24,000 nt of DNA, taken from the NCBI GenBank assembly GCA_028691315.1, contig JAQUZN010000001.1:121238-145237 (forward strand), given 5' to 3'. Under the pieces are notes generated by a model. The model ran no database searches, had not been told where the DNA came from, and saw nothing but the letters and a program-made list of their open reading frames with translations. This document shows positions 2,576-22,621 of this stretch, in pieces (within the stretch, counting starts at the first letter, position 1; each line of letters starts with the position of its first letter). The translations under genes were made by a program, and so were the position numbers. This DNA comes from Candidatus Izemoplasmatales bacterium. GTDB lineage: Bacteria > Bacillota_I > Bacilli_A > Izemoplasmatales > Hujiaoplasmataceae.

Positions 2576-2587
2576 AACTCATATGTA
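2576..2587 (-). promoter_or_regulatory. near-consensus TACA-N6-TT element 44 nt upstream of ATG 2543
   Basis: The minus strand reads TACATATGAGTT. Its offset resembles the other AACA-N6-TA hits. It would place the transcription start downstream of the 2582 ATG, which supports 2543 as the start. Confidence 0.25.
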
Positions 2588-2620
2588 TAATATATAACCA
2601 ATTTACAGTTATATAATATA
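2586..2620 (-). promoter_or_regulatory. two copies of TATATTATA (minus strand, 2594-2586 and 2620-2612)
   Basis: The exact 9-mer occurs twice between the upstream terminator and the 2543 start. The same 9-mer also occurs at 8234-8242 (+) and 15700-15692 (-). Confidence 0.3.
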
Positions 2621-2702: not shown

Positions 2703-3116
2703 TTAAAGTTCGTCTTCCAACAAGAACCAAAGAGCAACCTCATAATCAAATGGGATCTCCCATCCTTTTAGGGTTTCAGCATCTACACAGAAAAGAGTGA
2801 CTTCGTGTTCGATTTCAGAAATTTCTTTCAATTCATCACGATACGCTTTTACTTGATCTCTGTCTTCTGTGTTGATCTGCCAATAATTTCTACCGTCTTC
2901 AGTCTGTTTCGCTTCTCCATATTTTTGGATCAAATCCTGTTTAGCTTCTGAATACTCTGCGTTTTCTCCTCTGAGAATACGAAGATTACGTCCAAGCATA
3001 TAACCAAATTTCGGGTTATATCTCTGTCCAGAATTTCCTACTGCCTGAATAATAGCAGCAATAGACTCCGCCGCATCATTAATATCCGCATTTGACATTA
3101 CAATTTTTTTATCCAT
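2703..3116 (-). CDS. hypothetical protein, 137 aa; possible fibre accessory protein by position only
   Basis: The track ORF begins at a TTG (3122). The ATG at 3116 is preceded by AAAGGAGA with a 6-nt spacer and overlaps the stop of the upstream fibre gene by 8 nt (ATGGATAA), which suggests translational coupling. Confidence 0.7.
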   Translation of the reverse strand: MDKKIVMSNADINDAAESIAAIIQAVGNSGQRYNPKFGYMLGRNLRILRGENAEYSEAKQDLIQKYGEAKQTEDGRNYWQINTEDRDQVKAYRDELKEISEIEHEVTLFCVDAETLKGWEIPFDYEVALWFLLEDEL

Positions 3117-5268
3117 TCTCAATCTCCTTTAGCTTATTCTTTATACTATTTAGTTCTTTGAGTATTAATTTAATAGCCAGGAAGTTGATAGGATTCAATT
3201 CTTCATACCCAAGGGATAAGAAATGTTCAATTACTCTTTCATTTGGATTTGAAGGGTCTTTGATAATCTCTTCATAAGTTTGAATGATACTGAGATTTTC
3301 TACATTCATACCTAATGATTCAAGTTTATCTTTTATCTTATTAGCAGAGAATCCAAAGTGCGTTAATGGAACTTTACGATCATCATCTCTGTATTCATAT
3401 GCAATAGGCTCTATGGTTTCATAGAAATCATATAATGATTGATTTGATAATTGATTAATTAGAGGAACAATATTATTTTTCTTTCTCTCATCAGAAGTGA
3501 ATTGGTTAGTTCCAGAAGAATTCAATACAGGTTTATTAAATTTAGTTGGCAGATTTACTCTAAAATCTTCTTGATCGGTATCAGCAGACTGACCTATTGA
3601 TAATCCTTTCCCACTAGCTCCAAATTCAACAAAATAACCAGAGGCAGAAACAATCATTTCTCGATAAACTGCGGTTCCATCATTTACTTCTACTCTAATA
3701 GTATAAGCATGTGTTTCATCCAATCCGGTTAAGATTAAATTCTCTTGCCAATGAGCATTTACTGAAGATGGCGGAAATGGAAGCACATTTTCAGCCGGAT
3801 ATGATGTTTCATTTACTTTCTTCCATTGAATTTTAGAAGTCATAGAATCACCTTCAAAATTATCAAGCTCCATTGCAGAAGAATAAGCTTTAAACCATAA
3901 TCTTATATTTAATCCTTCATCATTTGCAACAAATCCATCCGCAGTAGTTCCAATTCCTCTAGTAACAGACATACCATCAATAACCGGAGGCATCGTGGCT
4001 TCTCTTACATTGATGACGACTTCCTTCATAACAGTGATTCCGCGACTATCAGCCAATTCAACGCGAACGACATTTGGACCTATACTATTCACAGCAATAG
4101 TAGCAGTAAAATTATGGTTATATTCTGCTTGATCGCTAGGTTGTGCAGTTGGGGTATATGTAAAAGTTTTTGTTCTGGTAGATATGCTATATTTAATAGT
4201 GGTAACTGTAGCTCCATATCGTTTACTTGCATTGACTCTTACTTGCATGAATGGTTTTGATTTTCCAAGTTCATACCCAGGAACTACTTCTATTGGGTCA
4301 GTTGCTGCTTGTCCTCTACCAGATGAATCATCAACACTAATCGATGTAAGTTTAAATCCAATATTCGGATCATCTTTTGGGACTTTTATTGTTCCTTTAT
4401 AAGTGTATCTTCCTAATAATTCCCCTTTTGTTCCATCGGCTTTACTTATGAATGTTGCAATCGCATAATAGCATGATATGACACTTGTTTTCGTTACATC
4501 ATTAAGTATACTAAGCGGTGGAGTCCAGGGGAGTGATGTTCCTAAATAATCTTGAGTTGCAAGAATACTAGTCTCTGTACCGTCATCTTTTGTATAATAT
4601 AAAGCGATATCACATTTTGTACCAGTAGACCTTGTTAAATTAAATCTTTGTTGTTGACCAATTGTGAGATTTGGTGTTTCTAATGTCATGGTGGTAGCAA
4701 CTGGTTTTGGACCAATATCAGGAACCTGCACTTCTAGTTGACAATTGATGCTGCTACAAGTATTCGTATTATTTTTACCAGTAACCGTAATAATATCGGT
4801 ATAAACACCTGTTAGATTATAATAGGTTAAATCCCATTCATGATACACTGTTCTTTGCCATTTATTGCTTGTTACAAAGTTCTGTGAGTAGTTCTTTTCC
4901 GCTTTTGATCTTGTAGATTTCAATTTAAGCGTTAAAGCGTTATTTGATGCAACCCCATCAGTTCTTCTAAAATAAACCGCACAAGTAATTCGAACTTTTC
5001 GATTTTCTTTACTCGGTGTTTTACATTTCACAACAACCATGATCTGATAACCTTTGCTTGTACCTTGATTCGATACACCATTTCCAAATGTATAACCATC
5101 TGTGTAGGCATAATAATCATTTGGTACAATCGCAGATGTATAAGGTGTTGTGCTTAATTTTACATTTGCAAGATTATTTGCTATTGTAGTTTCATTCGTT
5201 CCATTCATAATAATGGAAGGATATTTTGTATTATCAGATGTAATCCAATATAATCTTGAATTAGCCAT
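3109..5268 (-). CDS. tail fibre/spike protein with C-terminal intramolecular-chaperone (peptidase S74-type) self-cleaving domain
   Basis: AGGAGG lies 6 nt before the ATG at 5268. The last 128 aa start with the S74 hallmark T/SDERKKNNIVPL (Ser codon 3493-3495), followed by a helical region, as in endosialidase and T5 pb1-type fibre chaperone domains. Confidence 0.8.
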   Translation of the reverse strand: MANSRLYWITSDNTKYPSIIMNGTNETTIANNLANVKLSTTPYTSAIVPNDYYAYTDGYTFGNGVSNQGTSKGYQIMVVVKCKTPSKENRKVRITCAVYFRRTDGVASNNALTLKLKSTRSKAEKNYSQNFVTSNKWQRTVYHEWDLTYYNLTGVYTDIITVTGKNNTNTCSSINCQLEVQVPDIGPKPVATTMTLETPNLTIGQQQRFNLTRSTGTKCDIALYYTKDDGTETSILATQDYLGTSLPWTPPLSILNDVTKTSVISCYYAIATFISKADGTKGELLGRYTYKGTIKVPKDDPNIGFKLTSISVDDSSGRGQAATDPIEVVPGYELGKSKPFMQVRVNASKRYGATVTTIKYSISTRTKTFTYTPTAQPSDQAEYNHNFTATIAVNSIGPNVVRVELADSRGITVMKEVVINVREATMPPVIDGMSVTRGIGTTADGFVANDEGLNIRLWFKAYSSAMELDNFEGDSMTSKIQWKKVNETSYPAENVLPFPPSSVNAHWQENLILTGLDETHAYTIRVEVNDGTAVYREMIVSASGYFVEFGASGKGLSIGQSADTDQEDFRVNLPTKFNKPVLNSSGTNQFTSDERKKNNIVPLINQLSNQSLYDFYETIEPIAYEYRDDDRKVPLTHFGFSANKIKDKLESLGMNVENLSIIQTYEEIIKDPSNPNERVIEHFLSLGYEELNPINFLAIKLILKELNSIKNKLKEIENG

Positions 5269-5278
5269 TTCTTACCTC

Positions 5279-8143
5279 CTAAACTTGTCCAGTTTTCTTA
5301 ATGGACAGATTTCCATTTTCTCTTGCAAAGAACTTAAAGTTTCCGAGAGTAACAGCGTTTGTTTGCACTTCTTCTACTTCTAATCGATTCTGTTTAAATG
5401 TCGCTAAAGTTCCAGTTTCATTACTAAAACTAATGTTTGCATCTTCTGTATCATCTCCACTAAAGATTCTTAGTTTAACTGGACTAGCATTATTTCCCAA
5501 TAAGATAGCACCGTTATAAAGATTAATATATTGGAATAAATCACTGATCTCAATATCCATTGGATTACCTTCGCTATCTAATCCTTTAATAATAGTACGA
5601 TTTCTCCATTCTGTGCTAAGACCATCAATAGAAGCTTGCACTGATACAATCTTCTCATCAACTTCTGACATAATTTTTGATAAAGAATCATTCTCTGCAA
5701 TCATGCCTTTCACATCTTCTTCTGTAAGAATCTTTGGTTGTTCTGTTTGGAACACAGCAGCCATTGCATCCTCAAAAATTTCAAATCGCATAGAAGTTGC
5801 TTCGATATAATCCCTCATAGAGTTATCATTTTCAAATTCATTAACCGTAAGATCTTCAGGTGCTGGTTGCCAATCTCGAATTTTAACCAAACTATTATAA
5901 AGACCCATATTAATCAGATTGAAAGTATCACCTTCTTGGAAATCTGTTGATTTAAATCCAATATACTTATATTCAATATTATCAAGTTGATCATAGACAA
6001 TATCATACATTCTTGTTGTCAGAGCAATATTCATGGATGCTATTCTTTTAACATGAGATAGATCTTCTGTCATTAAATATACATTAACAACCAAGGGATC
6101 ATTAGTGCTAGTCGAACCAAATGCTCTAAAACAGAATGAATATCGTCCCATAGCTGGAACTTCACTTAATGGAAGTCTAATGTATTGATTTTCTTCTGTT
6201 TGCTCTTCTTGCAACTCACCCTTTTTAAATTGTAGATAAGTGACTCTTTTAGCAACATCATCTACAGTCATTGCTTCTAAATTTTCTGGTAAGATTGTCA
6301 TCGTCCATGGAATCTCACCAAGTTCCCATAACATTGGTTTATTTACTTGATAATCACCACTGGTAAGAATCATGTTTCGAATACCGAAGGTATGATTAAA
6401 ATTGATGACATCGACATCATTAACACGAAGAGTCTCAGCATTGATTTCTACACGATCGGTATTGGCTTCTACTTTAAAGTTTCTTGAGTCAATTCCACCA
6501 CTAGGACTTAATACCAAATTATTAGATAGATTAATACCACTTTTTCCAATATAAACACTTGTATATCCATCATTTGGATCTTCCCAATAGATTTCATTCT
6601 CTCCGATATTCCAAGGACCAATTCTACCACCTTCAGTAGCAATCAAATAACCTTCGGTTGTTATTTGTACTGCACCATTGATCGATGTCATACCATTCAA
6701 TTTAATATTATCGCCAGTAAGAACAATATCTCTAGATATCAAACTTGCAAAGTTTTCTGTTAGCTCAAAGGACGTCTCATCAGTACCTGAGACTAACCAA
6801 GAAAATCTCTCAGCTGTTTGTGCAGCACTGCTGGAGATCTGTAGGGCATTGTTAGCTTCTTGACTAATAGCCGTTAAAGTACGCACGGTTTCATCCGCAG
6901 ACTCTCTATATTCATTATAAAAGTCAGAAATATATTTCTTTTCACCATCTATTGTTTCATAGTAAGTCGATCTTCGTAACTGCTCTAAACCATGCATAGT
7001 TTCATAACTAGTCTTAACAGCTTCTACGGCTATAATTTGATCTCCACTCACTTCATCTTCTAAATTTGTAATCGCTTGCCAACCCAAAGGGGAACCAGTC
7101 CATTTAGAATAAATATCTGTGGATGGCATATACCAAATATCCCCTATTCGTGGATCATTTGGTACTGTTTCTGATACAATCACATTTTTCCTATTTTGAA
7201 GAGTAATAGAATTACGATAAGTCGCAAGGTTATATCTCATTTCACAAGTGATCGTAGTAGATAAAGCAATACTAGATATAGGTAATGATAATGTATATCC
7301 ACTTGCATTTTGAACCCAGATACCATTCACATACCATCTAAAGGTTGCATCCTCATCCGTCAATTTATTTGAACCTTCATACGCAATAGCTTCTAGTGTA
7401 ATGGTAGATACAGTACGATTATCAAAGATAGTTCCTTCTGGAGAGAATATATTGAATGAGATTGACGTGTTAGTAGGTTCAAATATCATATTACTTAATG
7501 TAATGCTACCAGTAGCACTAATCGCAGCCCCTTCAGTATCCGTTCCATTATAAGCACAATAAAAAGTAGCATTTACAGTATCATTCATTTCATTAGCAGA
7601 TACCGTAACATTTTTGCCAGTATAATGCTTACCATTCCAAAATGTATCATAATCAGCATTCTTTGATTTTCTAGTCCATACCAAATCAGTAGCTTTTGCT
7701 GTAGAGGTAATGTCTTCACCTGTTTTTAATATTCTTGCCGTTAAGGTTTTAACATCACTTGGAGAAGCAAAAATAAAACCCTCTCCACTCATTACTTCAC
7801 AAGTATAATGAGCGTTTGCCGCTAACTTATCAAGCTCTGTTCTTATTTTCCTACTACTCCAAGAGGCTGTATCTTTAATAGTATTATCATCAATATCCGA
7901 AAATTTAGGAAATATAATATTTAATTTTTTCGATTTACTATCTTCATCTATTTCAATACTAGCATCCGGTGTAGCAGAGTCTCCTACTATCAGATCCCCT
8001 ATTTCTAATGACATGCTATTCTTCTCTATGCCATCTTCCATATGGTCTAATCGTTTCTTTGTAATTACAGAATCATCTTGTAATCTAGAAGGTAATGTTT
8101 TATCATAAGTCTTCCAGTTTTGTTTTGTATAATCATAAGACAT
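5279..8143 (-). CDS. large tail fibre / receptor-binding-like structural protein (954 aa)
   Basis: The N-terminus YTKQNWKTYDKTLPSRLQDDSVITKKRLDHMEDGIEKN has the TW...(I/V)T...LNxhExGI pattern typical of Firmicute phage fibre N-termini. It carries the TASWSSRKI block shared with the 1-841 ORF. Its TAG stop overlaps the SD of the next fibre gene. Confidence 0.7.
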   Translation of the reverse strand: MSYDYTKQNWKTYDKTLPSRLQDDSVITKKRLDHMEDGIEKNSMSLEIGDLIVGDSATPDASIEIDEDSKSKKLNIIFPKFSDIDDNTIKDTASWSSRKIRTELDKLAANAHYTCEVMSGEGFIFASPSDVKTLTARILKTGEDITSTAKATDLVWTRKSKNADYDTFWNGKHYTGKNVTVSANEMNDTVNATFYCAYNGTDTEGAAISATGSITLSNMIFEPTNTSISFNIFSPEGTIFDNRTVSTITLEAIAYEGSNKLTDEDATFRWYVNGIWVQNASGYTLSLPISSIALSTTITCEMRYNLATYRNSITLQNRKNVIVSETVPNDPRIGDIWYMPSTDIYSKWTGSPLGWQAITNLEDEVSGDQIIAVEAVKTSYETMHGLEQLRRSTYYETIDGEKKYISDFYNEYRESADETVRTLTAISQEANNALQISSSAAQTAERFSWLVSGTDETSFELTENFASLISRDIVLTGDNIKLNGMTSINGAVQITTEGYLIATEGGRIGPWNIGENEIYWEDPNDGYTSVYIGKSGINLSNNLVLSPSGGIDSRNFKVEANTDRVEINAETLRVNDVDVINFNHTFGIRNMILTSGDYQVNKPMLWELGEIPWTMTILPENLEAMTVDDVAKRVTYLQFKKGELQEEQTEENQYIRLPLSEVPAMGRYSFCFRAFGSTSTNDPLVVNVYLMTEDLSHVKRIASMNIALTTRMYDIVYDQLDNIEYKYIGFKSTDFQEGDTFNLINMGLYNSLVKIRDWQPAPEDLTVNEFENDNSMRDYIEATSMRFEIFEDAMAAVFQTEQPKILTEEDVKGMIAENDSLSKIMSEVDEKIVSVQASIDGLSTEWRNRTIIKGLDSEGNPMDIEISDLFQYINLYNGAILLGNNASPVKLRIFSGDDTEDANISFSNETGTLATFKQNRLEVEEVQTNAVTLGNFKFFARENGNLSIKKTGQV

Positions 8144-8186: not shown

Positions 8187-8233
8187 CAAGATAGGCAGGA
8201 TGTGGCAATTGTAATTAAATGATCGCTCAATCA

Positions 8234-8242
8234 TATATTATA
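8234..8242 (+). promoter_or_regulatory. TATATTATA element upstream of the Spo0A-like gene
   Basis: Exact 9-mer 42-50 nt upstream of the ATG at 8284. A near AACA-N6-TA element (GACAATTGTATA, 8248-8259) follows it. Confidence 0.3.
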
Positions 8243-8283
8243 AATTTGACAATTGTATAATACCAAAGAAAGGAAATGAACTT

Positions 8284-9168
8284 ATGAAAAAAGTGAATAT
8301 TATCACACCATCAAATGAAAAACTGCCATCAAATTTTGTGACTGCATGTAATCAATTACAGGAGGAATACAAATCTACTGAAGTAAAATTTAAAGCTTAT
8401 GTTTTGAAGAATCAAGATGTAGATGCTACTCAGACATTAAAAGATATTGCTAATGCAGATGTCATGATAATTGTTTCATCTATGTATTTTGGTGTAAGTA
8501 TTAATATGATATGCTCTATGATAAAAGATGTAAACCCATCTTTACATATCATCGTATGTGAATTATCAGAGAATGGAATGCCAAAGAATTTTACCGACAA
8601 GTTAATGGAAGTCCCAGTTGATTGTATACTTAGTAATCCAAAAGATATCAATATTATCAAGTATATTATCAACTATGGAATCAAAAAGAATAATGAGTCG
8701 ACCGATCAATTGTTGATACCATCAGAAAGACAAATTAACAAAGAATCATCCGTTAAAGAAACGGAAATAAAAACCGTAACAGAGATGACGGATGATGAGA
8801 TCAAGAAATTAATTTCTCAGATATTTAGAGAAATTGGTTGTAGTGTAAATCTTATTGGATTTGCCTATGCTGTTGATTCCATATTTTATCTTGTGAGGTA
8901 TGGGCATGACAATAAAATTGTAACTACAGTGTATGGGTATGCAGCAAAAGAAGCAACAAACAAAGGTAGGGAAACAACAGCCAATAGAGTAGAACGAGCA
9001 ATTCGTCATATGATTGAGAATCTTTTTAATAATGGGAAATCAAACTTCGTGTTATCGAATAAGTTCAACCCAGACAAAGGAAAACCAACCAATACGGAAT
9101 TCTTGAAGTATATTGCTGATAGTATTATCAATGGCTGGTATCAAGAAATATTAGATGAAAATAAATAA
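8284..9168 (+). CDS. Spo0A-like transcription factor: Spo0A C-terminal DNA-binding domain fused to a degenerate (pseudo)receiver domain
   Basis: The C-terminal ~115 aa align block-for-block with remembered B. subtilis Spo0A-C: ISQIFREIGCSVNLIGFAY vs ITSIIHEIGVPAHIKGYLY; ANRVERAIRHMIENLF vs ASRVERAIRHAIEVAW; KGKPTNTEFLKYIADSI vs KAKPTNSEFIAMVADKL. The N-terminal ~130 aa have a receiver-like beta/alpha periodicity but lack the acidic pocket and the phospho-acceptor Asp. Confidence 0.85.
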   Translation: MKKVNIITPSNEKLPSNFVTACNQLQEEYKSTEVKFKAYVLKNQDVDATQTLKDIANADVMIIVSSMYFGVSINMICSMIKDVNPSLHIIVCELSENGMPKNFTDKLMEVPVDCILSNPKDINIIKYIINYGIKKNNESTDQLLIPSERQINKESSVKETEIKTVTEMTDDEIKKLISQIFREIGCSVNLIGFAYAVDSIFYLVRYGHDNKIVTTVYGYAAKEATNKGRETTANRVERAIRHMIENLFNNGKSNFVLSNKFNPDKGKPTNTEFLKYIADSIINGWYQEILDENK

Positions 9169-9170
9169 AA

Positions 9171-9210
9171 GAAAAGACCCTAGTGAAGAATATTTCACTA
9201 GGGTTATTTT
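9171..9210. terminator. bidirectional terminator between convergent genes
   Basis: 11-bp stem ACCCTAGTGAA (9177-9187) / TTCACTAGGGT (9194-9204) with a 6-nt loop. It is flanked by an A-run upstream and TATTTTATT downstream, so a T-tract is present on both strands. Confidence 0.7.
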
Positions 9211-9211
9211 A

Positions 9212-9805
9212 TTAAGAAATTCTTTTTCTTTTTTGTTCCAATCGTCGATCAATTGCTTTTTGAAACTCCGGTTTCAAATAATGATAGACATCTTTTACAT
9301 TATAAAATCTACCATATTTCGACATATGATTATCCTTCAAGTTTTTATTGATATATCCATCAAACTCAGACGAATAATCTGCAACGTATAATATATTATG
9401 TACTCCATCCCAATAAATCGACGAATCATAAGCCACGAAAGGTTTGTTAAATAATCGAATATAATCAATACCCGAGAATTTTACATTTTTAATATTGATT
9501 CTTGCTTCTTGTCTAGCTTCTAATACAACTTGTTGATGATTTGCTACATCACGTTCTACAGATCCACCTGGAACTCTGAAATAATTCTTTTCTCTACATA
9601 GAAAGACTTGACCTTTATGATTAAAGATCAAAACTTCTACACGGTTTCTAAATATTTTACCTGGAAACTTAGATATGGTTACCAAGCTATTCCAATTATT
9701 ATTACGATCAAAATATCCTTTATGTAACAATGCAGAGTGCATCGTTATCTTAGGACTAGCCGGTGTTCGCATCGCTCTTTTCTCCTTCTTTCTTTTTTCA
9801 CTCAT
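9212..9805 (-). CDS. Nudix-fold hydrolase-like protein with partly degenerate Nudix box
   Basis: GGSVERDVANHQQVVLEARQEARI aligns to the Nudix box GGxxExGExxxxAAxRExxEExGU. E5, E17 and E21 are kept, but R16 is L, E20 is Q and G23 is R. Start is uncertain: AAGGAGA abuts the ATG at 9814, and the ATG at 9805 has about 10 nt spacing. Confidence 0.5.
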   Translation of the reverse strand: MSEKRKKEKRAMRTPASPKITMHSALLHKGYFDRNNNWNSLVTISKFPGKIFRNRVEVLIFNHKGQVFLCREKNYFRVPGGSVERDVANHQQVVLEARQEARINIKNVKFSGIDYIRLFNKPFVAYDSSIYWDGVHNILYVADYSSEFDGYINKNLKDNHMSKYGRFYNVKDVYHYLKPEFQKAIDRRLEQKRKRIS

Positions 9806-9839
9806 ACAAATCATTCTCCTTATAACGTAAGAATTCTAT

Positions 9840-9851
9840 TATATGGATGTT
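9840..9851 (-). promoter_or_regulatory. AACA-N6-TA element (AACATCCATATA) upstream of the Nudix-like gene
   Basis: The reverse complement of 9840-9851 is AACATCCATATA. It starts 37 nt (ATG 9814) or 46 nt (ATG 9805) upstream and lies just after the terminator of the preceding gene. Confidence 0.4.
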
Positions 9852-9880
9852 TTAGCCTTCGTTATTTACCATATTATGAG

Positions 9881-9924
9881 AAAAAAGAAAAAGGTCAGCC
9901 TAGGCAGTTTCATCCACCTAGGCT
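9881..9924 (-). terminator. rho-independent terminator after the 9935-11374 gene
   Basis: 8-bp stem AGCCTAGG (9897-9904) / CCTAGGCT (9917-9924). On the minus strand it is followed by GACCTTTTTCTTTTTT. Confidence 0.6.
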
Positions 9925-9934
9925 TGTTTTTGTT

Positions 9935-11374
9935 TTATATAATCGTCGGTATGATCCGCTTAAGTGTTTCTAATCGTTCTACCATCAATGTGTTCATCCT
10001 ATTTGCGCTGATAGGATATGCAGGTAATATCGTACCTGGGCGATATGGTGAATCAATTAGAGACTGTATGGTTTGATCAACTTCTTCGATTATATAATTG
10101 TTTACATTATTTCTTGGTTTTATTAATTGGTATTCATACATAATATCTCTTTGAATCTTCTCTAACTCTTTTGTGAAGGGTGTAACCGATTCAAATCTAA
10201 CATCATCCTTAAATGATGATTGTTCATGCTTATGATCAATTAAATTAATATAAAACTCATGGATTGAACAAGAAGATTCAATTAACTGATAATAGTTTTC
10301 AATTTGATCTTCTGATTCTATGAATAAATACGTATATAATAAATCATATGTCTCACAAACAATAGTACGCTGTAATCGTATAGTGGTACCATCTTTAGCA
10401 AATGCAAAGATATCATTCAATCCATCTTTATGAACAATAATCACATCTTCTTTTGGATTATTTGTGAATGTATTTTTCTTCATACAACCACTAATATAGA
10501 TATTATTGCCAGTGCCAACCATAGCTCCATTAGCAGTATTTTCAATGATATTTTTTGGCTCATGGATCTTTTCTTTCCATGAGTATTCATAAGTCTGATC
10601 TTTTTTCACAAAGATATCAATCGTTCCTATGAAACGGGTCTTACCGGCTTTCATATCAGTATATACATAATAAATTCCAGATATAAGACGACCTTTTGAC
10701 AATAATGCAGAAGGTAAATCCGGATAATATTGTTCTTCATCCCAACAAGTGTTTTCTGGTTCTTTATAATCTCTCTCTAAATGATAAGAAGAAAAATGTT
10801 CATAAGAATCTTTTTCTCCTTCTACGGATTCTATTTGATATTCAACCTCTTCTTTTACTAATAAATAAGCAGTATGATAATTATCTGGGCTTAATTTACC
10901 ACCCATTGGTTTAATTACTTTATTAACCATTGGACAATATTTTTCTGGCTTTTCTTCTCCAAAACAGAAACATATACTTTCCTTTGGATCATTTTTAAAC
11001 TTCTCTATTTCTTTTTTTGGTATAATTAGTTTTCTACCAATTTCTTTTTCTACCATACTTCTAGCTTGATTAAATATCTTCATTCGTTTATTAGTATCTT
11101 CTAATATAATACATACTTCATTCATAGCTTCTGGAAGATATTTTAATATACGATTATTCGGATCTATTTGTATATTACCCATTTGAAACTCTTCTAATTT
11201 ATGGATGATATTATTTGCTAATTTTTCTTCATTATTTTCATTCACATAATTAAAAAACTTAATAGCTGATTCTACTTCATTTTTATCACGTAATGGATAT
11301 TTTCTAAGTTCCGGAAGCCCATAATAGGATTCCTCCGTTACTTCTTTTTGTTTATTCTCATAGAATATAGGCAT
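9935..11374 (-). CDS. hypothetical protein (479 aa)
   Basis: Long ORF. AAAGGGGT lies 7 nt before the ATG at 11374. No family recognised. Confidence 0.75.
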   Translation of the reverse strand: MPIFYENKQKEVTEESYYGLPELRKYPLRDKNEVESAIKFFNYVNENNEEKLANNIIHKLEEFQMGNIQIDPNNRILKYLPEAMNEVCIILEDTNKRMKIFNQARSMVEKEIGRKLIIPKKEIEKFKNDPKESICFCFGEEKPEKYCPMVNKVIKPMGGKLSPDNYHTAYLLVKEEVEYQIESVEGEKDSYEHFSSYHLERDYKEPENTCWDEEQYYPDLPSALLSKGRLISGIYYVYTDMKAGKTRFIGTIDIFVKKDQTYEYSWKEKIHEPKNIIENTANGAMVGTGNNIYISGCMKKNTFTNNPKEDVIIVHKDGLNDIFAFAKDGTTIRLQRTIVCETYDLLYTYLFIESEDQIENYYQLIESSCSIHEFYINLIDHKHEQSSFKDDVRFESVTPFTKELEKIQRDIMYEYQLIKPRNNVNNYIIEEVDQTIQSLIDSPYRPGTILPAYPISANRMNTLMVERLETLKRIIPTII

Positions 11375-11390
11375 CTCAATACCCCTTTCT

Positions 11391-11436
11391 TAATACAAAA
11401 ATAAAAACATAGGAGATATATTACTCCTATGTTTTT
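11391..11436 (-). terminator. rho-independent terminator after prfH
   Basis: 13-bp stem AAAAACATAGGAG (11403-11415) / CTCCTATGTTTTT (11424-11436). On the minus strand it is followed by ATTTTTGTATT. Confidence 0.7.
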
Positions 11437-11451
11437 ACCCTCTTTTGACGT

Positions 11452-12042
11452 TCATTTCTTAACCAATTTAAATTCTGGTCCTTCATATACTCTTACAGGA
11501 TTTCCTCGAATTAAATCTTGGTGTGCTCTCCAAGCTTCTTCTTTTTGTTGAGATTGTGCATCATTCTCAATCTCTTTCAAGATAGATTTTAATCGTTCTG
11601 TTACTTCTTTTTTGTTTAAGTATTGACTTCTCTCTGAAGTGGAGACTAAGCTAATTCCAGTAGGTCTATGAATTAAACGAACTCCACTTTCTACTTTGTT
11701 TACATGCTGACCGCCTTTACCTCCACTTCGAAAAGATTCATACTTAATATCGTTCTCATTAAATTCACAAACAGCATTATGGCTAGAGATTCTACTCACA
11801 TCAATGAACCAATTCTTTCGTTTATGGTGAGGACGGATGGGACTTTTACAAATCCATTGAATAGAACCTTCTAGCCATGACAAATCATGTTTTGTTTGAA
11901 ACATAACAGAATCTTGTTTTAAAGCAGCCATATCCGATAGAACTTCAATATCTTCAAATTCATCTTCTAACGAATGAAGCAGAAGTGTAACTGCTAATTT
12001 ACATTCTGTTGGTCCATGACCTGAACTAATCTGTAGTATCAT
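11452..12042 (-). CDS. prfH: peptide chain release factor H (PrfH-type GGQ protein lacking codon-recognition domains)
   Basis: MILQISSGHGPTEC, IQWICKSPIRPHHKRKNWF and RSGGKGGQHVNKVESGVRL closely parallel E. coli PrfH as I remember it (MILLQLSSAQGPEEC, IQWICPSPYRPHHGRKNWF, GGQHVNK). GGQ codons are at 11707-11715. At 196 aa it is far shorter than RF1/RF2. It overlaps rtcB by 4 nt. Confidence 0.9.
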   Translation of the reverse strand: MILQISSGHGPTECKLAVTLLLHSLEDEFEDIEVLSDMAALKQDSVMFQTKHDLSWLEGSIQWICKSPIRPHHKRKNWFIDVSRISSHNAVCEFNENDIKYESFRSGGKGGQHVNKVESGVRLIHRPTGISLVSTSERSQYLNKKEVTERLKSILKEIENDAQSQQKEEAWRAHQDLIRGNPVRVYEGPEFKLVKK

Positions 12043-13184
12043 TCTTTTCCTCCGGCTTTAAAATTATAGATTGGTTTGATTATCTTTGCAATACGAACGG
12101 TATCTTGAATTGCTTCTTGAATATCTTTCAAATCACGATAAGCGAATGGAGCTTCATCTAATGTATCTTTACCAATACTTGGTGAATGAATACCTTTCAT
12201 GATAGATTTATATTCAGATACTGTATGAGAATTCTTTACTTCTTCTCTTTTTATAATTCTTCCTGAGCCATGAGGAGCCGAACAATTCCAATCTTCATTT
12301 CCTAATCCCACACCCAAAATAATACCATCTTTAGAATTAACTGGAATTGCTATATATTGTCCTTCTCTTGCTGAGATTGCACCTTTTCTTAAAATATAAT
12401 CATTCCCGATGAAGTTATGAGGACAATCCATATGCTTACCAGCATTCCATTTCATCTTTTTTACTATTTTACCAATAATTCTTAATCGATTAAAATGTGC
12501 AAATTCCTCTGCTATAAAAGAATCATTTAGATAATCATTTCTTAACCATCCTTCTAAATAAGTCATTTCATAAGGCACGTCAATTCCTTTTCTTTTTAAT
12601 TCTTTCTGTCCTTCGTTTAAATAATAAGATGTGATATCAGAACCAAAACTACGACTTCCACTATGAACAGATAGGAAGAGCTTTCCATCATCGTCTTGAT
12701 CGATTTCAATGAAATGATTTCCTCCACCAAGAGTTCCAACACTTCGTTCTATGATATCTTTTCTGGCGTTTTTCATTCGAATATTATTAAATTCAATTTT
12801 ATCAAAAAAGGTCATAGGCGAATCTTCAATAGAATTATGAATCTTCATACCACATGGAATATTTTCTCGAATAACTGTATCGAGTTTCTGAAATTCAATT
12901 CTCTTTGTATTAATTGGAACTATCGTAACCCCACAACCAATATCATTTCCTAAAAGATTAGGAAGAATGCGATCTGTGAGTGTCATGGATAAACCAATAG
13001 GTCCAACCTTTCCAGGGTGCACATCTGGCATGACTCTTATTTTACTATCTTTTGATACTTCATTATCACAGATCATTTTGATCTGGGCTTCAGCATATTG
13101 TTCAATTTTCTGGTCTTGCTCTTTTGTTGTAAATACCTTTGCTGATCCATATTTTCCTTTAATATAATAATTATAATTTCCCAT
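12039..13184 (-). CDS. rtcB: RtcB-family 3'-phosphate/5'-hydroxyl RNA ligase
   Basis: RtcB signature blocks are present: VMPDVHPGK, GNDIGCGV, GTLGGGNHFIEID, SVHSGSRSFG, CPHNF and NCSAPHGSGR. AAGGAGA lies 5 nt before the ATG at 13184. Confidence 0.92.
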   Translation of the reverse strand: MGNYNYYIKGKYGSAKVFTTKEQDQKIEQYAEAQIKMICDNEVSKDSKIRVMPDVHPGKVGPIGLSMTLTDRILPNLLGNDIGCGVTIVPINTKRIEFQKLDTVIRENIPCGMKIHNSIEDSPMTFFDKIEFNNIRMKNARKDIIERSVGTLGGGNHFIEIDQDDDGKLFLSVHSGSRSFGSDITSYYLNEGQKELKRKGIDVPYEMTYLEGWLRNDYLNDSFIAEEFAHFNRLRIIGKIVKKMKWNAGKHMDCPHNFIGNDYILRKGAISAREGQYIAIPVNSKDGIILGVGLGNEDWNCSAPHGSGRIIKREEVKNSHTVSEYKSIMKGIHSPSIGKDTLDEAPFAYRDLKDIQEAIQDTVRIAKIIKPIYNFKAGGKE

Positions 13185-15656: not shown

Positions 15657-15693
15657 TAATAGTGAGTATAGATCTTTCCTATACTCACTATTA
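15657..15693 (-). terminator. 15-bp perfect hairpin after the 394-aa gene (terminator and/or 5'-UTR structure of the downstream operon)
   Basis: TAATAGTGAGTATAG (15657-15671) pairs with CTATACTCACTATTA (15679-15693) around a 7-nt loop. The downstream minus-strand tract CATATTCTAAATTT is only moderately T-rich. Confidence 0.5.
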
Positions 15694-15700
15694 TAATATA
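15692..15700 (-). promoter_or_regulatory. TATATTATA element upstream of the paralog/rtcB/prfH operon
   Basis: Exact 9-mer on the minus strand, immediately 5' of the 15-bp hairpin and about 75-80 nt upstream of the ATG at 15618. Confidence 0.3.
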
Positions 15701-15714
15701 TCATCATTATTCTT

Positions 15715-16899
15715 TTATAATATATATTTAGCAAAATATTCTATATCACTTTCATTAATATAAATATTACTAATATTATCGTTCTCTTCTATTTTAATTC
15801 CTAAAATTCCTGATTTACCCACTTCTAATTCAGCAGGTATTTCTATACTTCCTACATAAATAGAAGAATGAATAATTTGATTAATGAAAGCAATAAAATG
15901 ACGCAATTCATCAATATCAGTTTCTTTCGTGATCTTATAGATTGCAAATTTCCATTCATTATCATCTGTATGAATATCTATCATTCTACAGAATAACATT
16001 CTATTTTGTTGTCTTAACAATAACAATTTCTTTCTTGCCATTTCAGCAGTCTCTTTATAATCAAGTATATTATTCACTTCATTGATTCTTGTAATATGAA
16101 TGGTTCTTACCGTTTGGTGGGGAGCTTCCATTAGATTCTCTTTCAACTCCAACATCAATTGAATCATTTGGTCAAATCGATTATCCGTTAAACGGATATA
16201 ATTATATTGTTTTTGGTCTTTAATTGCTTTCTCTTTTGCTAATTGTTTTTTTCGATATTCTTCCATGTTTCTTGTATTCGGATTATCTCCACCATCTTTA
16301 ATATCAAATACCAGATTATATGGTTCATAATAATAATCAGTAATCCATTGATGTGTCTTACCATTAAATTGATAATCAATCACTGGTCCAGGCGCAGTTA
16401 AATCCGATGATTTTATATGAAAGAAATTATCCATAAAAGATAAAAATGCTTTTTCATAGCTTCCTACATAAGAAAGAACTCCACCATCTTGAAACTTATA
16501 TTTCCCCGATATGGATCGATTCTGTAACATCTTATTTTGAAACTCAGGATCGTTTAAAAAATCCTCTTTTGTTTTGCCATGTTTCTTATATAATCGATCT
16601 GCCGTTTGTTTGATATATGCTTCTTTACAAGTCTTTCTATTACAGATTCTATCGTACCGAGCTTTTGATTCATCCCATGGAGTTTCTCTTCTACATATCA
16701 CACAACTACCATTTGTTTTTTTATTAATTAAATTAAATATCACTCTTGTAGAAGAATAACCTTCAGGAATCATATCTTCATGAGTACGATCTACATGCGT
16801 AATTAGTTTATTTCTTTCTAATCTTTTCTCACAATAAGGACACTTATATTTCTTTGTATATTTCGGTTGGATTTTTATAATCTCGTTACCATTCGTCAT
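15715..16899 (-). CDS. zinc-finger protein with putative PD-(D/E)xK nuclease core
   Basis: It has an N-terminal CPYC...H(x4)H motif and a second Cys cluster (CVIC...C...C). The central SYEKAFLSFMD...YQFNGKTHQWITDYYYEPYNLVFDIKDGG fits the SxxE..FL..D / D...(D/E)xK layout of restriction-endonuclease-fold enzymes. The C-terminal ~130 aa are unassigned. Confidence 0.45.
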   Translation of the reverse strand: MTNGNEIIKIQPKYTKKYKCPYCEKRLERNKLITHVDRTHEDMIPEGYSSTRVIFNLINKKTNGSCVICRRETPWDESKARYDRICNRKTCKEAYIKQTADRLYKKHGKTKEDFLNDPEFQNKMLQNRSISGKYKFQDGGVLSYVGSYEKAFLSFMDNFFHIKSSDLTAPGPVIDYQFNGKTHQWITDYYYEPYNLVFDIKDGGDNPNTRNMEEYRKKQLAKEKAIKDQKQYNYIRLTDNRFDQMIQLMLELKENLMEAPHQTVRTIHITRINEVNNILDYKETAEMARKKLLLLRQQNRMLFCRMIDIHTDDNEWKFAIYKITKETDIDELRHFIAFINQIIHSSIYVGSIEIPAELEVGKSGILGIKIEENDNISNIYINESDIEYFAKYIL

Positions 16900-17034: not shown

Positions 17035-17268
17035 ATGGATTTAACAATTTCAGAACAGATGAAAGATATATTATCAGAAAGATTTGAATTAGAAATATGT
17101 GAAACAAATAAGGATACCGGTCTTGATATTTTAAAAGATGGTTCTTATATTGCCACTATTTATGATTCTTCTGATTTTTATAAATTTGTCTATCAATATG
17201 CTAATTTAACTACAGATAATAATACATTAAAACTTTTTGACAATATGCTTATAGAGTTATTTAATTAA
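17035..17268 (+). CDS. hypothetical protein (77 aa)
   Basis: The ORF has an AGAGAGG SD about 9 nt upstream and is the first gene of a co-directional, tightly packed block. Confidence 0.6.
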   Translation: MDLTISEQMKDILSERFELEICETNKDTGLDILKDGSYIATIYDSSDFYKFVYQYANLTTDNNTLKLFDNMLIELFN

Positions 17269-20502: not shown

Positions 20503-21839
20503 TTGGAATCATTGAATTTAAGAAATCTTATGTTAGAATATATTGATGATAATTACAATAGTGATGTTATCATGCTAAACGAAGCCGGTAAAGGAACAAG
20601 TCTATTAGAAGTTGAATTATTGGATGATGAAGACTTTATTAAGAAGAACCAAATAGAACCAATCACAAATCCAATCTTCTTTGTAAGAGAAGGAATTCCT
20701 TCTACCGATGGTTTATTATCAAATCAAATTTTTGGTATCACAAAAGAAGAACGATCTAACACATTTGGTTATATCGATCTTGGTGATACTTACATGCATC
20801 CTCTTTGTTATAAAGTATGGAGTCGAATGGATTCTCGTATTAAAGATATTGCTCATGGAACAAAAAAGTTTATCATCGAGAATGGTGATTTTGTTGAGAG
20901 TGAGAATGGTGAGAATGGTATGGAGTTCTTACGAAAGAATATCAATAACATTAAAATCCGTTCTACCGAATCTCGACAACGTGATAAAAAGATTAAATTC
21001 TTAATGAGTAATCGAAATAAAATGTTTATTAAAAAATTTATGGTTATCCCAGCATACTATCGAGATGTGGAAACTAATTCTGGTGGTAAAGTTGGGGTAG
21101 GTTCTTTAAATAAGCATTATGCATCTTTGATAATCTCTGCTCGATCATTAAAAGAAACTCAAGAGTATGGTCTCAACGTATCTGAAGCTGTGCGTGGGAG
21201 AGTGCAAGAAACAATTCTCGACATATATAACATACTTAGCGGAACTTCGGACGACCCCGATGCCGGAATCGGCTTATCTTCAAAAAGAGGGTACGTAAAG
21301 AGTGCTGTTATGGGGAAAACAGCAGATTATGGATCTCGACTGATTATTTCTGCACCTGAGTTAAAAGTAGAGGCTTTAGATGATCTAATGGTAGATATGG
21401 ATTATTGTGCATTGCCATTAGCATCAGCTATTACAAACTTCTTTCCCTTTATCGTATTCCATGTTAAACGTTTCTTTGAGAATAACTTTCATGGAAATGA
21501 ACAATATTCTACGATCAATAAAAAAACAGGTAAAACAGAATTCGTAACGATTAAAGACCCATTAGAAACTTTCTCTGATGAGAGAATACGAAAAGAGATG
21601 AAACGATTTGTTAAAGGTTACTCTGATCGTTTTTCTCCTATAGAGATTCCAACAACTAATGGCGATATGGTAAGAGCAAGATTTACCGGAAAAGAAGTAT
21701 CCGCTGAAGATATGAAGAATGGAAATGTATCCGGTTCTTCTGCTTTAATACAAAGAGATTTAACTTGGTGTGATGTATTCTATATGGCGGCCACAGAAGC
21801 TGTCAGAGATAAGCATGTTATTATTACCCGTTTTCCGAT
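20503..21839 (+). CDS. multisubunit RNA polymerase beta-prime-like subunit (N-terminal fragment type), exon 1
   Basis: TTG start preceded by GAAAGGGGTGA. Beta-prime blocks are present: STDGLLSNQIFG (cf. ERDGLFCARIFGP), FGYIDLGDTYMHP (cf. MGHIELAAPVAHIW), VIPAYYRDV (cf. VLPVLPPDLRP), MGKTADYGSRLIISAPEL (cf. LGKRVDYSGRSVI) and VIITRFP (cf. VLLNRAPTLH). The exon ends at T21839, the predicted 5' splice site. The track's tail KEEIQVSARPVMV is intron read-through. Confidence 0.85.
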
Positions 21840-22215
21840 AAAAGAAGAAATTCAAGTGTCGGCTAGGCCAGTAATGGTCTAGAAATAACTTTTCTAATTG
21901 CTGGAAATCCTTAAAGCCTCAGAGACCACAACGTAATTCATAAGAATAAGCGTGAGGGTTATCGAAAGATAGAAAAAACGTCTGAGGATGATCTATGGTG
22001 ATAGTAAGCCTAAGGATCGTATAAAATAGGTGATCAGCAGCTAAGCATCTTTATAAAAAGATGAAAGTTCAACGACTATCCGAAAGGAGTAGGGTTCAAG
22101 TGAATTCGAAATGGAAAGCATCCTTATGGGATGAAGATATAGTCTAGTATCCTAATGAAAGTTAGGGAAGTTCATAAGAGAACTGCGTAGCTTAACGACC
22201 TACGTGAATACCACG
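21840..22215 (+). ncRNA. group I self-splicing intron (ORF-less, 376 nt) in the RNAP beta-prime gene
   Basis: The classical core elements appear in order: P AATTGCTGGAAA (21896-21907), Q ATCAGCAGC (22033-22041), R GTTCAACGACTATCC (22067-22081) and S AAGATATAGTC (22134-22144). GCTG/CAGC forms P4 and GACTAT/ATAGTC forms P7. In P1, exon CCGAU (21835-21839) pairs with GUCGG (21858-21862), giving a U:G wobble at the splice site. There is a 7-bp P2 hairpin (21863-21882) and GAAA tetraloop hairpins (TATCGAAAGATA, CCGAAAGG). The intron ends in G22215 (omega-G). Confidence 0.9.
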
Positions 22216-22621
22216 GGACAGTTGTTTTAATAACATGGTTGCTAAAGTAAGAGTCTCTACTGTCAAATATATGGAAAAGGTTTATGTGAATGGAACCTAT
22301 TATCCGTTTTACCCAAAGATTAGACAGAAAGATATTAGTTCTAACACGAGTGATAAATTTATTGATACATTGATGATTAGTAATCTTATGCTCAAAGGAG
22401 CCGGTGGTGATTATGATGGAGATCAAGTATCGGTAAAAGCTGCATGGACACAAGAAGCCAATATTGAATTGGATAAGTTTATCAAATCAGTTTCAAATTA
22501 TATTGATCTTGGTGGTGTCAATATTCGAGTCTCAACAAATGAAGCAGTACAAGCTTTATTTAGTATGACAAAGATATTAAATGAAGATAAAGCTAAGATT
22601 CAAAAACCTATTTTTACATAA
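22216..22621 (+). CDS. RNAP beta-prime-like subunit, exon 2 (carries the catalytic DYDGD loop)
   Basis: Joining AT(21838-21839) to G(22216) restores the frame: ...VIITRFP-M-DSCFNNMVAKVRV..., parallel to bacterial NRAPTLHRLGIQAFEPVLI. GGDYDGDQVSVKA (Asp triad 22409-22423) corresponds to NADFDGDQMAVHV. The ATG at 22235 in the track is internal. Confidence 0.85.

Follow-up and report, generated by a model that had tools for sequence, protein, structure and literature searches.

A jumbo-phage gene for a divergent Spo0A-like protein whose receiver-sized N-terminal domain lacks the phospho-acceptor

Phages are already known to carry sporulation genes. Genes homologous to the effector domain of spo0A are on record from human-gut phages, where they were proposed to control host sporulation independently of the phosphorelay (Schwartz et al. 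2023, mBio; PMC10294663), and the isolated DNA-binding domain of Spo0A binds its legitimate targets without phosphorylation (PMC3485338). Such genes are common in IMG/VR: we obtained 244 matches, mostly to the C-domain alone, and in 80 loci the proteins are short (median 128 aa) and lie on contigs of mostly ~20-60 kb; a length of ~125 aa is typical of viral homologues. We came across no publication that puts these catalogued phage copies to an experimental test. GenBank records labelled 'Bacteriophage sp.' were also considered as phage precedents and set aside, as they hold ordinary full-length Spo0A with 40-54 % identity to Clostridium and are probably host DNA.

Phage fate can also be tied to the Spo0A decision through the host. 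Phage phi29 reportedly exploits host Spo0A in this way, and spore-converting pseudotemperate phages, PMB12 and SP10 among them, intervene at stage 0, through genes that have not been identified (PMC3714127). These phages rely on host Spo0A or on the unidentified 'scn' genes, whereas the phage described here encodes a Spo0A-like protein of its own. Receiver-like domains without phosphorylation chemistry are likewise documented: aspartate-less receiver (ALR) proteins and other pseudo-receivers (PMC12632262, PMC4395418) have a predicted (beta-alpha)5 domain before a DNA-binding effector, lack D, DD and K, and must regulate independently of phosphorylation. The published examples are by definition computationally recognised as receivers, or they come from small Pfam families that have been named (PMC12632262, PMC4395418), and pseudo-receivers that work through protein-protein contacts have been documented (PMC12632262). 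No ALR-Spo0A_C combination occurred among the matches listed.

Our results place the present gene within this reported class of phage sporulation genes, as an unusual variant of it; the novelty that the earlier note, made from the sequence alone, had attached to a phage Spo0A does not hold, effector-domain genes having been published (PMC10294663). The gene is carried by a ~246-kb jumbo phage distantly related to AR9/PBS1, of which the window (the whole stretch of 24,000 nucleotides that was analysed) covers ~10 %. Its phage origin, as first proposed, is borne out by nearby genes for a tail fibre, for the subunits of a split multisubunit RNA polymerase (RNAP), for RtcB and for a baseplate protein. 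The split multisubunit RNAP, a group I intron in an RNAP gene and the motif ATATATTAT-N6-G 5' of genes are shared with AR9/PBS1-type phages (PMC5312081). The RNAP subunit is only ~28-33 % identical to those of cultured relatives. Related jumbo-phage contigs measure roughly 220-270 kb, and relatives known to infect Bacillota include AR9/PBS1 and jumbo phages of Staphylococcus and Listeria. A search with PADLOC defence models was negative. The features of the locus are as follows.

8229..8248, plus strand: early-promoter-like motif AATCATATATTAT-AAATTT-G (match to the AR9 virion-RNAP early consensus)
8268..8275, plus strand: ribosome-binding site AAAGGAAA (direct sequence reading)
8284..9168, plus strand: Spo0A-like open reading frame, 294 aa (ORF call; identity with MDD3121987.1)
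8284..8688, plus strand: N-terminal alpha/beta domain, aa 1-135, predicted (beta-alpha)5 (alignments; AlphaFold)
8689..8790, plus strand: low-confidence linker, aa 136-169 (pLDDT <50 for aa 137-163), aligning with the variable Spo0A hinge
8812..9126, plus strand: Spo0A_C effector (DNA-binding) domain, aa 177-281 (Pfam PF08769; PDB 1fc3/1lq1; Foldseek)
8980..9021, plus strand: recognition-helix segment ANRVERAIRHMIEN, aa 233-246 (alignment to homologues)
9022..9081, plus strand: divergent segment after the recognition helix, LFNNGKSNFVLSNKFNPDKG, aa 247-266 (3-residue deletion; without W..RG and FGYT)
9176..9205, no strand assigned: bidirectional intrinsic terminator, common to the convergent NUDIX gene (stems of 13 and 11 bp)
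9212-9814, minus strand: NUDIX gene, convergent with the Spo0A-like gene (gene layout)

The reading frame is intact (294 codons, ATG start), and its product is identical to NCBI protein MDD3121987.1. Its C-terminal half is a genuine but very divergent Spo0A_C domain and not a generic HTH, as had been proposed. Pfam PF08769 matches aa 177-281 with 61.9 bits (6.2e-17; cut-off 25) over profile positions 1-104 of 104, the PDB effector domains 1fc3 and 1lq1 match it with E values of 2e-9 and 2e-8, and Foldseek pairs the modelled domain with 1fc3_A (E 7.6e-5, TM 0.69). The peptides from which the assignment had been made (ANRVERAIRHMIENLF, KGKPTNTEFLKYIADSI and IGFAYAVDSI) are all present. Both family signatures, invariant in 62 and 73 homologues, are found here as NRVERAIRH and GKPTNTEF; RVERAIR itself is kept in all 62 homologues, in the 73 viral homologues and in the present protein. 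E237, R238 and R241 align opposite B. subtilis E213, R214 and R217, which we take to be residues that contact bases in 1LQ1. With bacterial Spo0A (TIGR02875; 1fc3, 1lq1) the protein thus shares Spo0A_C, RVERAIRH and GKPTN.EF as well as domain order, overall length and hinge position, yet its C-domain is only 36-42 % identical to that of bacterial Spo0A, and its TIGR02875 score of 59.8 bits lies under the 200-bit equivalog cut-off, so it is not classed as an orthologue.

The segment that follows the recognition helix, presumably the surface mapped as the sigma-A contact in B. subtilis, is one place where the protein departs from the known phage versions. W224, R226, F236, G237, Y238 and T239 (B. 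subtilis numbering), 92-100 % conserved in the 62 homologues, are all replaced, and the spacing between RVERAIRH and KPTN is 32, against 35 in 68 viral homologues; the other viral homologues retain W..RG and FGYT, whereas here both are missing. Among the C-domain positions that the family conserves, about half differ here (GVPAHIKGY to GCSVNLIGF, R177 to V, TK to VT, P199 to G), so that binding to DNA, or the specificity of that binding, may be altered as well. This is the most divergent Spo0A_C seen: it scores 61 bits, whereas 80 viral homologues score 87-192.

A second difference lies in the N-terminal half. The phage-carried spo0A of Schwartz et al. (2023) and the viral proteins with PF08769 only (for example A0A8S5N4T4) are likewise phage-encoded, keep the recognition helix and have no functional receiver, but they consist of the effector domain only, whereas the present protein adds a receiver-sized alpha/beta domain: 170 aa precede the effector domain, of which ~135 form a predicted folded domain. 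In an alignment to Spo0A receivers, the DD pair is replaced by P9-S10 (nt 8308-8313, in the peptide IITPSN, aa 6-11), Asp56 falls opposite V64 or S66 depending on the alignment (V64-S66, nt 8473-8481, in DVMIIVSSMYF, aa 59-69) and the receiver Lys is replaced by N118 (nt 8635-8637, in ILSNPKD, aa 115-121), while the following Pro is kept as P119 and the T/S position as S95. Four of the five key receiver residues (DD, D and K) are hence absent and Ser alone is kept, so that the protein has neither the acidic pocket nor the acceptor Asp nor the Lys of bacterial Spo0A, much as the earlier note had read from the peptides. No Asp or Glu occurs between D59 and D82, so the acceptor is missing whichever register is chosen; an Asp or Glu at the acceptor site was looked for and none was found in any plausible register. 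The alignments thus support an N-half without phospho-acceptor chemistry.

Whether this half descends from a receiver at all is a separate matter. A Pfam search gave neither a Response_reg nor a pseudo-receiver match at E<=10, a PDB sequence search gave no match, and phmmer with the N-terminal 170 aa against 1.84 billion representatives returned the protein itself and two marginal short matches, with no homologue. Unlike the published pseudo-receivers, the N-half is recognised by no model, neither PF00072 nor a named pseudo-receiver family. A Spo0A-receiver HMM scores 4.2 bits, which 99 of 2000 shuffles attain (p~0.05), and hhalign against Spo0A receivers gives P=0.031. Foldseek matches to the model of the N-half are generic, with E values of only ~1e-3 and with Ras, TIR, B12-binding and DHQase folds among them. 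Other phage Spo0A_C proteins have unrelated N-extensions, such as the Cys-rich type of L011, L024 and P0079, and aa 90-187 are weakly similar to an orphan ORF of another jumbo phage (see below). These observations lend weight to the view that an unrelated flavodoxin-like or novel alpha/beta domain was fused to Spo0A_C and that 'pseudo-receiver' is a misnomer, which we regard as a real possibility, though well short of a probable one. Against it, domain order, size and hinge position are as in Spo0A, and the alignments of full-length Spo0A HMMs extend collinearly into the N-half (TIGR02875, aa 25-281; phrog_37855, aa 57-280). AlphaFold with an MSA, in which the alignment to real receivers guided the fold, gives a (beta-alpha)5 model with pLDDT 56-84 (b1 2-9, a1 16-33, b2 34-41, a2 48-56, b3 60-65, a3 67-83, b4 88-93, a4 101-108, b5 114-117, a5 122-134), each element pairing one-to-one with the Spo0A receiver and with the Ser at the T position and the Pro after the K position kept; a single-sequence model has the same alternation of strands and helices. 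Both hhalign and the HMM pick the correct register in beta4-alpha4-beta5. The best target-normalised TM (0.71) belongs to a response regulator, T. maritima 2qxy, and the CheY-like domain of TadZ reaches 0.63-0.68. A degenerate receiver is thus moderately supported, and of the term 'pseudo-receiver' used in the earlier note the lack of a phospho-acceptor stands, while receiver ancestry has only moderate support and is weak statistically, the receiver profile giving no match.

The expression signals point to the phage's own transcription machinery. In AR9, the early promoter consensus of the virion RNAP is AAATATATATTAT-(6N)-G (PMC5312081). The motif 5' of the Spo0A-like gene agrees with it at 11 of 13 positions and at the +1 G; the predicted start of transcription is G8248, which leaves a 36-nt leader, and an AAAGGA Shine-Dalgarno sequence lies ~9 nt 5' of the ATG. 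Seven exact copies of ATATATTAT occur in the window against 2.2 expected, a number reached in none of 100 shuffles, and five of the seven are within non-coding DNA (11.6 % of the window), oriented toward the next gene. The same motif is found in six related jumbo-phage loci, mostly 8-110 nt 5' of genes on the same strand. By analogy, then, ATATATTAT-N6-G 5' of the gene looks like an AR9-type early promoter, its function being predicted. The model phage for this promoter has an RNAP subunit only ~28 % identical. A scan for sigma-70-type promoters 5' of the gene found no correctly spaced site; TTGACA and TATAAT are present with only 4 nt between them.

The gene is the sole plus-strand gene between two minus-strand blocks and ends at the bidirectional terminator, as had been noticed (terminator-like sites number three against 0.4 expected). 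It is also a singleton. Searches of IMG/VR, GTDB genomes and JGI metagenomes yielded no relative of the whole protein, the protein databases searched, which include several relatives of >200 kb, gave no ortholog, and neither AR9 nor PBS1 gave a tblastn match. In L007, a 248-kb relative with ~56 % identity, the syntenic slot is taken by an orphan ORF of 173 aa that runs on the opposite strand and has no Pfam or PHROG match and no family; its similarity to aa 90-187 is weak (27.7 bits) but reached in none of 1000 shuffles, and is not retrieved by tblastn. The locus of the closest relative, L091 (RNAP subunit 77 % identical), stops within the NUDIX gene, just before the slot, and only the negative database searches suggest that it, too, has no ortholog. 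The different orphan in the L007 slot and the lack of an ortholog in databases support the view of the gene as an accessory, self-contained unit. It had been called 'moron-like'; this fits an accessory unit with its own signals, but the promoter resembles the early type of the phage virion RNAP and not a host type.

Taken as a whole, our best explanation, which we hold tentatively and would not quite call probable, is an early phage Spo0A-like protein that occupies 0A boxes independently of phosphorylation and carries an aspartate-less, receiver-like N-domain. The injected virion RNAP would transcribe the gene as a monocistronic early unit, as suggested by the AR9-type promoter motif and the gene's own terminator. 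The protein would then bind Spo0A-box-like DNA (TGTCGAA type) with no input from host kinases or the phosphorelay, and its occupancy of host Spo0A targets, through competition or repression, would hold the infected cell back from sporulation. The N-domain would most likely be a (beta-alpha)5 module, without the aspartate, for dimerisation or for a phosphorylation-independent input. Occupancy is more likely than activation because the stretch that follows the recognition helix, which bacterial and other phage homologues conserve, is not conserved here. AR9-type phages lower host mRNA globally (PMC5312081), so a regulator directed at the host is needed less. The bin label, which indicates a non-sporulating order, also speaks against this explanation: the contig was deposited as a MAG contig labelled Candidatus Izemoplasmatales, an order reported without any spore genes, all having been lost (PMC10868615), and the earlier conclusion that the gene pins the host to an endospore former is not supported, on the same point.

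It may instead be that the captured Spo0A_C fold has drifted to serve the phage's own genes or replication and has no role in host sporulation. The extreme divergence of the domain, with half of its family-conserved positions changed, would fit such a use, as would a phage that supplies its own RNA polymerases and is binned with a lineage that lost sporulation. Yet the base-reading motif RVERAIRH and the motif KPTN.EF are kept exactly, which argues for the ancestral DNA target, and there is no sign of target sites on the phage, at least in the window: 0A boxes are not enriched but below expectation (one perfect box against 2.9 expected, four TGNCGAA against 7.6). We consider this reading unlikely.

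Distinctly unlikely, in our view, is a constitutive activator that resembles the free effector domain and, whatever the host signals, turns on the early genes of sporulation, the phage genome thereby becoming trapped in a spore ('spore conversion'). The intact recognition helix would allow it, and carrier-state infection is a known trait of the PBS1/AR9 lineage. Phosphorylation-independent binding by the isolated domain (PMC3485338) and the stage 0 action of PMB12 and SP10 (PMC3714127) are further precedents. However, the segment after the helix, kept in all other homologues, is replaced and three residues shorter, the intact N-domain could equally keep the effector domain inactive, and this phage gives no sign of a pseudotemperate lifestyle. 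Receivers commonly make partner contacts via the beta4-alpha4-beta5 face. A protein-level decoy, in which the N-domain binds host Spo0A in inactive heterodimers or binds its kinases, phosphotransferases or phosphatases, thereby disturbing the phosphorelay and not DNA occupancy, is highly improbable: the Spo0A-receiver similarity is best preserved in beta4-alpha4-beta5 and pseudo-receivers are known to act via protein-protein contacts (PMC12632262), but the receiver similarity of the N-half is at noise level and an intact DNA-reading motif would be superfluous for a pure decoy.

Returning to 0A-box occupancy, the features that bear on mechanism and set this gene apart are the unphosphorylatable receiver-sized domain, the missing conserved segment after the helix and its apparent early expression by a jumbo phage whose own transcription does not need the RNAP of the host. 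If 0A boxes are bound, setting the protein beside host Spo0A and the short phage versions would tell occupancy from activation, and it would show whether phages block or force sporulation, which bears on the ecology of spore formers in guts and sediments. A bolder and rather unlikely version is that the injected phage RNAP leads within minutes to a Spo0A mimic in no need of phosphorylation, whose aspartate-less, receiver-like domain and altered activation surface override the host's sporulation decision, either as a vegetative lock for the burst or as carrier-state entrapment in the spore. Were this override real, it would provide a first molecular handle on the old, unexplained phenomenon of 'spore-converting phage', and a natural case in which a virus has turned a response regulator into a switch that is blind to signals. 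The locus also calls for caution in MAG curation, since a 246-kb phage genome sits in a bacterial bin, where its Spo0A-like gene could be miscounted as sporulation capacity.

The gene at 8284-9168 on the plus strand is an unbroken ORF of 294 codons in DNA of 31% G+C, preceded by the ribosome-binding site AAAGGA, and is the sole plus-strand gene between a tail-fibre gene and a NUDIX gene. The earlier note described a lone plus-strand gene closed by a bidirectional terminator, and both the gene map and a hairpin downstream bear this out; the peptides it quoted were all recovered in place. The surrounding features are as follows.

3109-5268, minus strand: large tail-fibre-like protein whose C-terminus weakly matches Peptidase_S74 (intramolecular chaperone)
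5279-8143, minus strand: tail-fibre gene on one flank, encoding a large tail-fibre-like protein with a tail-fibre PHROGs match over aa 97-460
9176-9205, both strands: hairpin with a 13-bp stem, scored as a terminator
9212-9814, minus strand: NUDIX gene on the other flank

Neighbouring genes in the window encode tail-fibre proteins, a baseplate-wedge-like protein, RtcB, an RF-1-domain protein, an endonuclease and pieces of a multisubunit RNA polymerase (RNAP), and these structural and RNAP neighbours, together with jumbo-phage relatives, uphold the original assignment of the gene to a phage. By RNAP gene comparison, the nearest cultured relatives are Bacillota jumbo phages at 28-33% identity (Listeria LPJP1; Staphylococcus S6/PALS_2; Bacillus AR9/PBS1/BpSp), and uncultured relatives 56-77% identical lie on contigs of roughly 220-270 kb. 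The identical protein MDD3121987.1, already annotated by NCBI as Spo0A_C-containing, is on a 246,077-bp contig labelled 'MAG: Candidatus Izemoplasmatales bacterium' (locus tags PHC62_*). Its gene content and the size of its relatives mark this contig as evidently the nearly complete genome of a jumbo phage, and a Spo0A_C gene filed in this way could be wrongly taken for a marker of bacterial sporulation. The earlier suggestion that carrying this gene ties the host to the endospore formers is not supported; loss of all spore genes has been reported for Izemoplasmatales (PMC10868615). Bin membership of the phage contig is weak host evidence in either direction, and the window yielded neither a tRNA nor another host marker.

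The Spo0A-type C-terminal domain proposed from the sequence is firmly established. Residues 177-281 give an end-to-end match to Pfam Spo0A_C (61.9 bits; gathering cut-off 25), the C-terminal half matches the solved Spo0A effector domains 1fc3 (E 2e-9) and 1lq1 (E 2e-8), and the AlphaFold model superposes on 1fc3 with a TM of 0.69. RVERAIRH and GKPTN.EF, invariant among 62 aligned homologues, are both kept. Among the residues of these motifs, E237, R238 and R241 correspond to E213, R214 and R217 of B. subtilis, which we take to contact bases in the 1LQ1 complex. Judged by its sequence, this is nonetheless the most divergent Spo0A_C among those found: a bacterial C-domain HMM gives it 61 bits vs 87-192 for 80 IMG/VR homologues, and it differs at about half of the family positions that are at least 85% conserved in the 62-homologue alignment. 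Three residues are deleted in the segment after the recognition helix, the spacing from RVERAIRH to KPTN being 32 vs 35 in 68/68 viral homologues having both motifs, and this segment has neither the W..RG nor the FGYT motif kept by bacterial and most viral copies. In B. subtilis the post-recognition-helix segment (~223-240) has presumably been genetically mapped as needed for sigma-A-dependent activation and not for repression.

In the N-terminal half, the proposed loss of the phospho-acceptor stands whichever register is used: the position falls on V64 in one alignment and on S66 in others, and no Asp or Glu occurs between D59 and D82. The acidic pair of the receiver aligns to P9-S10. The KP motif had been read as altered, which is true of the Lys (N118) but not of the Pro (P119); a Ser (S95) is also kept. 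With the acidic pair, acceptor Asp and Lys missing, phosphotransfer chemistry by this half is excluded.

Descent from a receiver is less firmly indicated than the loss of acceptor chemistry in the pseudo-receiver first proposed. Against it, no Response_reg match was found at E<=10 in a Pfam profile search, a PDB sequence search with the N-terminal half gave no match, and no homologue of this half was found among 1.84 billion representative proteins. A Spo0A-receiver HMM also scores only 4.2 bits, reached by 99/2000 shuffles. In its favour, hhalign against the Spo0A receiver gives P=0.031 with the correct register across beta4-alpha4-beta5, and two full-length Spo0A HMMs extend their collinear alignment into the region. 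AlphaFold with 62 homologues places all ten (beta-alpha)5 elements (pLDDT 56-84), although as receiver evidence this MSA-guided model is partly circular; a poor single-sequence model has the same strand/helix alternation. The best target-normalised Foldseek match is the response regulator 2qxy (TM 0.71), followed by TadZ/CpaE CheY-like pseudo-receivers and ComE REC, but Ras, TIR and B12-binding domains are also matched and E-values are ~1e-3. We consider it fairly probable that the N-terminal half is a degenerate receiver by ancestry.

Phage-borne Spo0A effector domains have been documented in gut phages, whose spo0A homologues have the effector domain without a receiver and were proposed to exert signal-independent control of sporulation (Schwartz et al., mBio 2023, PMC10294663). 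The observation in the earlier note is confirmed, and its interpretation in part, but its headline idea was already published. New here are a receiver-sized, aspartate-less N-domain, a jumbo-phage early-gene setting (the promoter by analogy) and the altered post-recognition-helix segment. Our IMG/VR scan gave 244 Spo0A_C stretches; among the best 80, the median product was 128 aa, nine had a genuine receiver, a few had a Cys-rich N-extension and none was on a jumbo contig. BFVD names for viral Spo0A_C proteins also exist. Stand-alone paralogues occur on bacterial chromosomes too, as in the 168-aa protein below, so receiver-less Spo0A_C is not phage-restricted.

Bacterial locus L009, 8001-8507, plus strand: stand-alone Spo0A_C protein P0002, with the clpP/clpX region on one side and an OmpR-type two-component pair on the other

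In a viral subgroup of 189-226 aa (L011 and L024 from IMG/VR, and P0079), a Cys-rich N-terminal extension (LALCPG..C..C..C) replaces the receiver, and may form a module that senses metals or redox state.

In AR9, the injected virion RNAP transcribes early genes from AAATATATATTAT-(6N)-G (PMC5312081). A similar motif precedes the Spo0A-like gene, and exact ATATATTAT occurs seven times in the window against 2.2 expected (seven reached by 0/100 shuffles). Five of the seven copies, oriented toward the next gene, lie in non-coding DNA (11.6% of the window); four of these five have G at +6, and neither of the two intragenic copies does. One copy precedes the RNAP-like gene at 960-2582.

8229-8248, plus strand: early-promoter-like motif AATCATATATTAT-AAATTT-G, 36 nt before the ATG of the Spo0A-like gene
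2580-2595, minus strand: non-coding AR9-like core ATATATTAT(-N6-G), facing the next gene
15686-15701, minus strand: the same
15710-15725, minus strand: the same
17066-17081, plus strand: the same

In six related loci (L002, L003, L004, L007, L091, L092) the motif is intergenic, in most cases 8-110 nt ahead of a gene on the same strand; these genes include an RNAP-subunit gene (L003) and the ORF in the slot adjoining NUDIX (L007). From this placement in the window and its relatives, and by analogy with AR9, we infer that the Spo0A-like gene would form a monocistronic early unit.

Relatives of the whole protein were absent from scans of a 5.8-billion-cluster database, IMG/VR, GTDB and JGI, making it a singleton. 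Since the long-contig relatives are within the searched databases and gave no ortholog, the gene looks strain-specific and fits an accessory role. In the 248-kb relative L007 the corresponding slot, on the opposite strand, is occupied by an unrelated orphan ORF; the locus of the closest relative, as examined, ends just short of the slot.

L007 9276-9797, minus strand: 173-aa orphan slot ORF, early-promoter motif 108 nt upstream
L007 9989-11620, plus strand: NUDIX gene with a fused C-terminal extension carrying a P-loop (GLSGSGKST)

The 173-aa ORF has a weak, unexplained similarity to aa 90-187 of the Spo0A-like protein (27.7 bits, a score reached by 0/1000 shuffles).

The reading with most support is a 0A-box binder independent of phosphorylation that would be produced early in infection and, through occupancy, competition or repression at 0A boxes, would block sporulation entry. 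Such a role is favoured over activation because the conserved post-recognition-helix segment is lost, which weighs against a constitutive activator leading to spore entrapment, as in spore-converting phages, a phenomenon itself unexplained (PMC3714127). The protein might otherwise act as a protein-level decoy. Repurposing as a regulator of phage genes only finds little encouragement in the window, ~10% of the genome, where 0A boxes are not enriched. With its pseudo-receiver ancestry and its function both putative, the protein is a clean construct on which the role of phage Spo0A homologues could be tested.

Beyond this gene, a minus-strand cluster resembles a module for RNA repair or translation rescue, and a group I intron splits an RNAP beta-prime-like gene into coding parts 20503-~21829 and ~22168-22621.

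9212-13184, minus strand: cluster of NUDIX hydrolase, unknown 479-aa protein, RF-1-domain protein and RtcB
11452-12042, minus strand: RF-1-domain (peptidyl-tRNA-hydrolase-like) protein
12039-13184, minus strand: RtcB RNA ligase
21830-22167, plus strand: group I intron (Rfam RF00028, 88.2 bits, E 1.3e-21)

The RtcB and RF-1 genes are missing from the matching region of the related phage loci L001 and L007. The beta-prime-like gene is unsplit in L001, L006, L091 and L092, and in L003 its second part has a ~1.3-kb insertion at a site different from that of the intron in the window.
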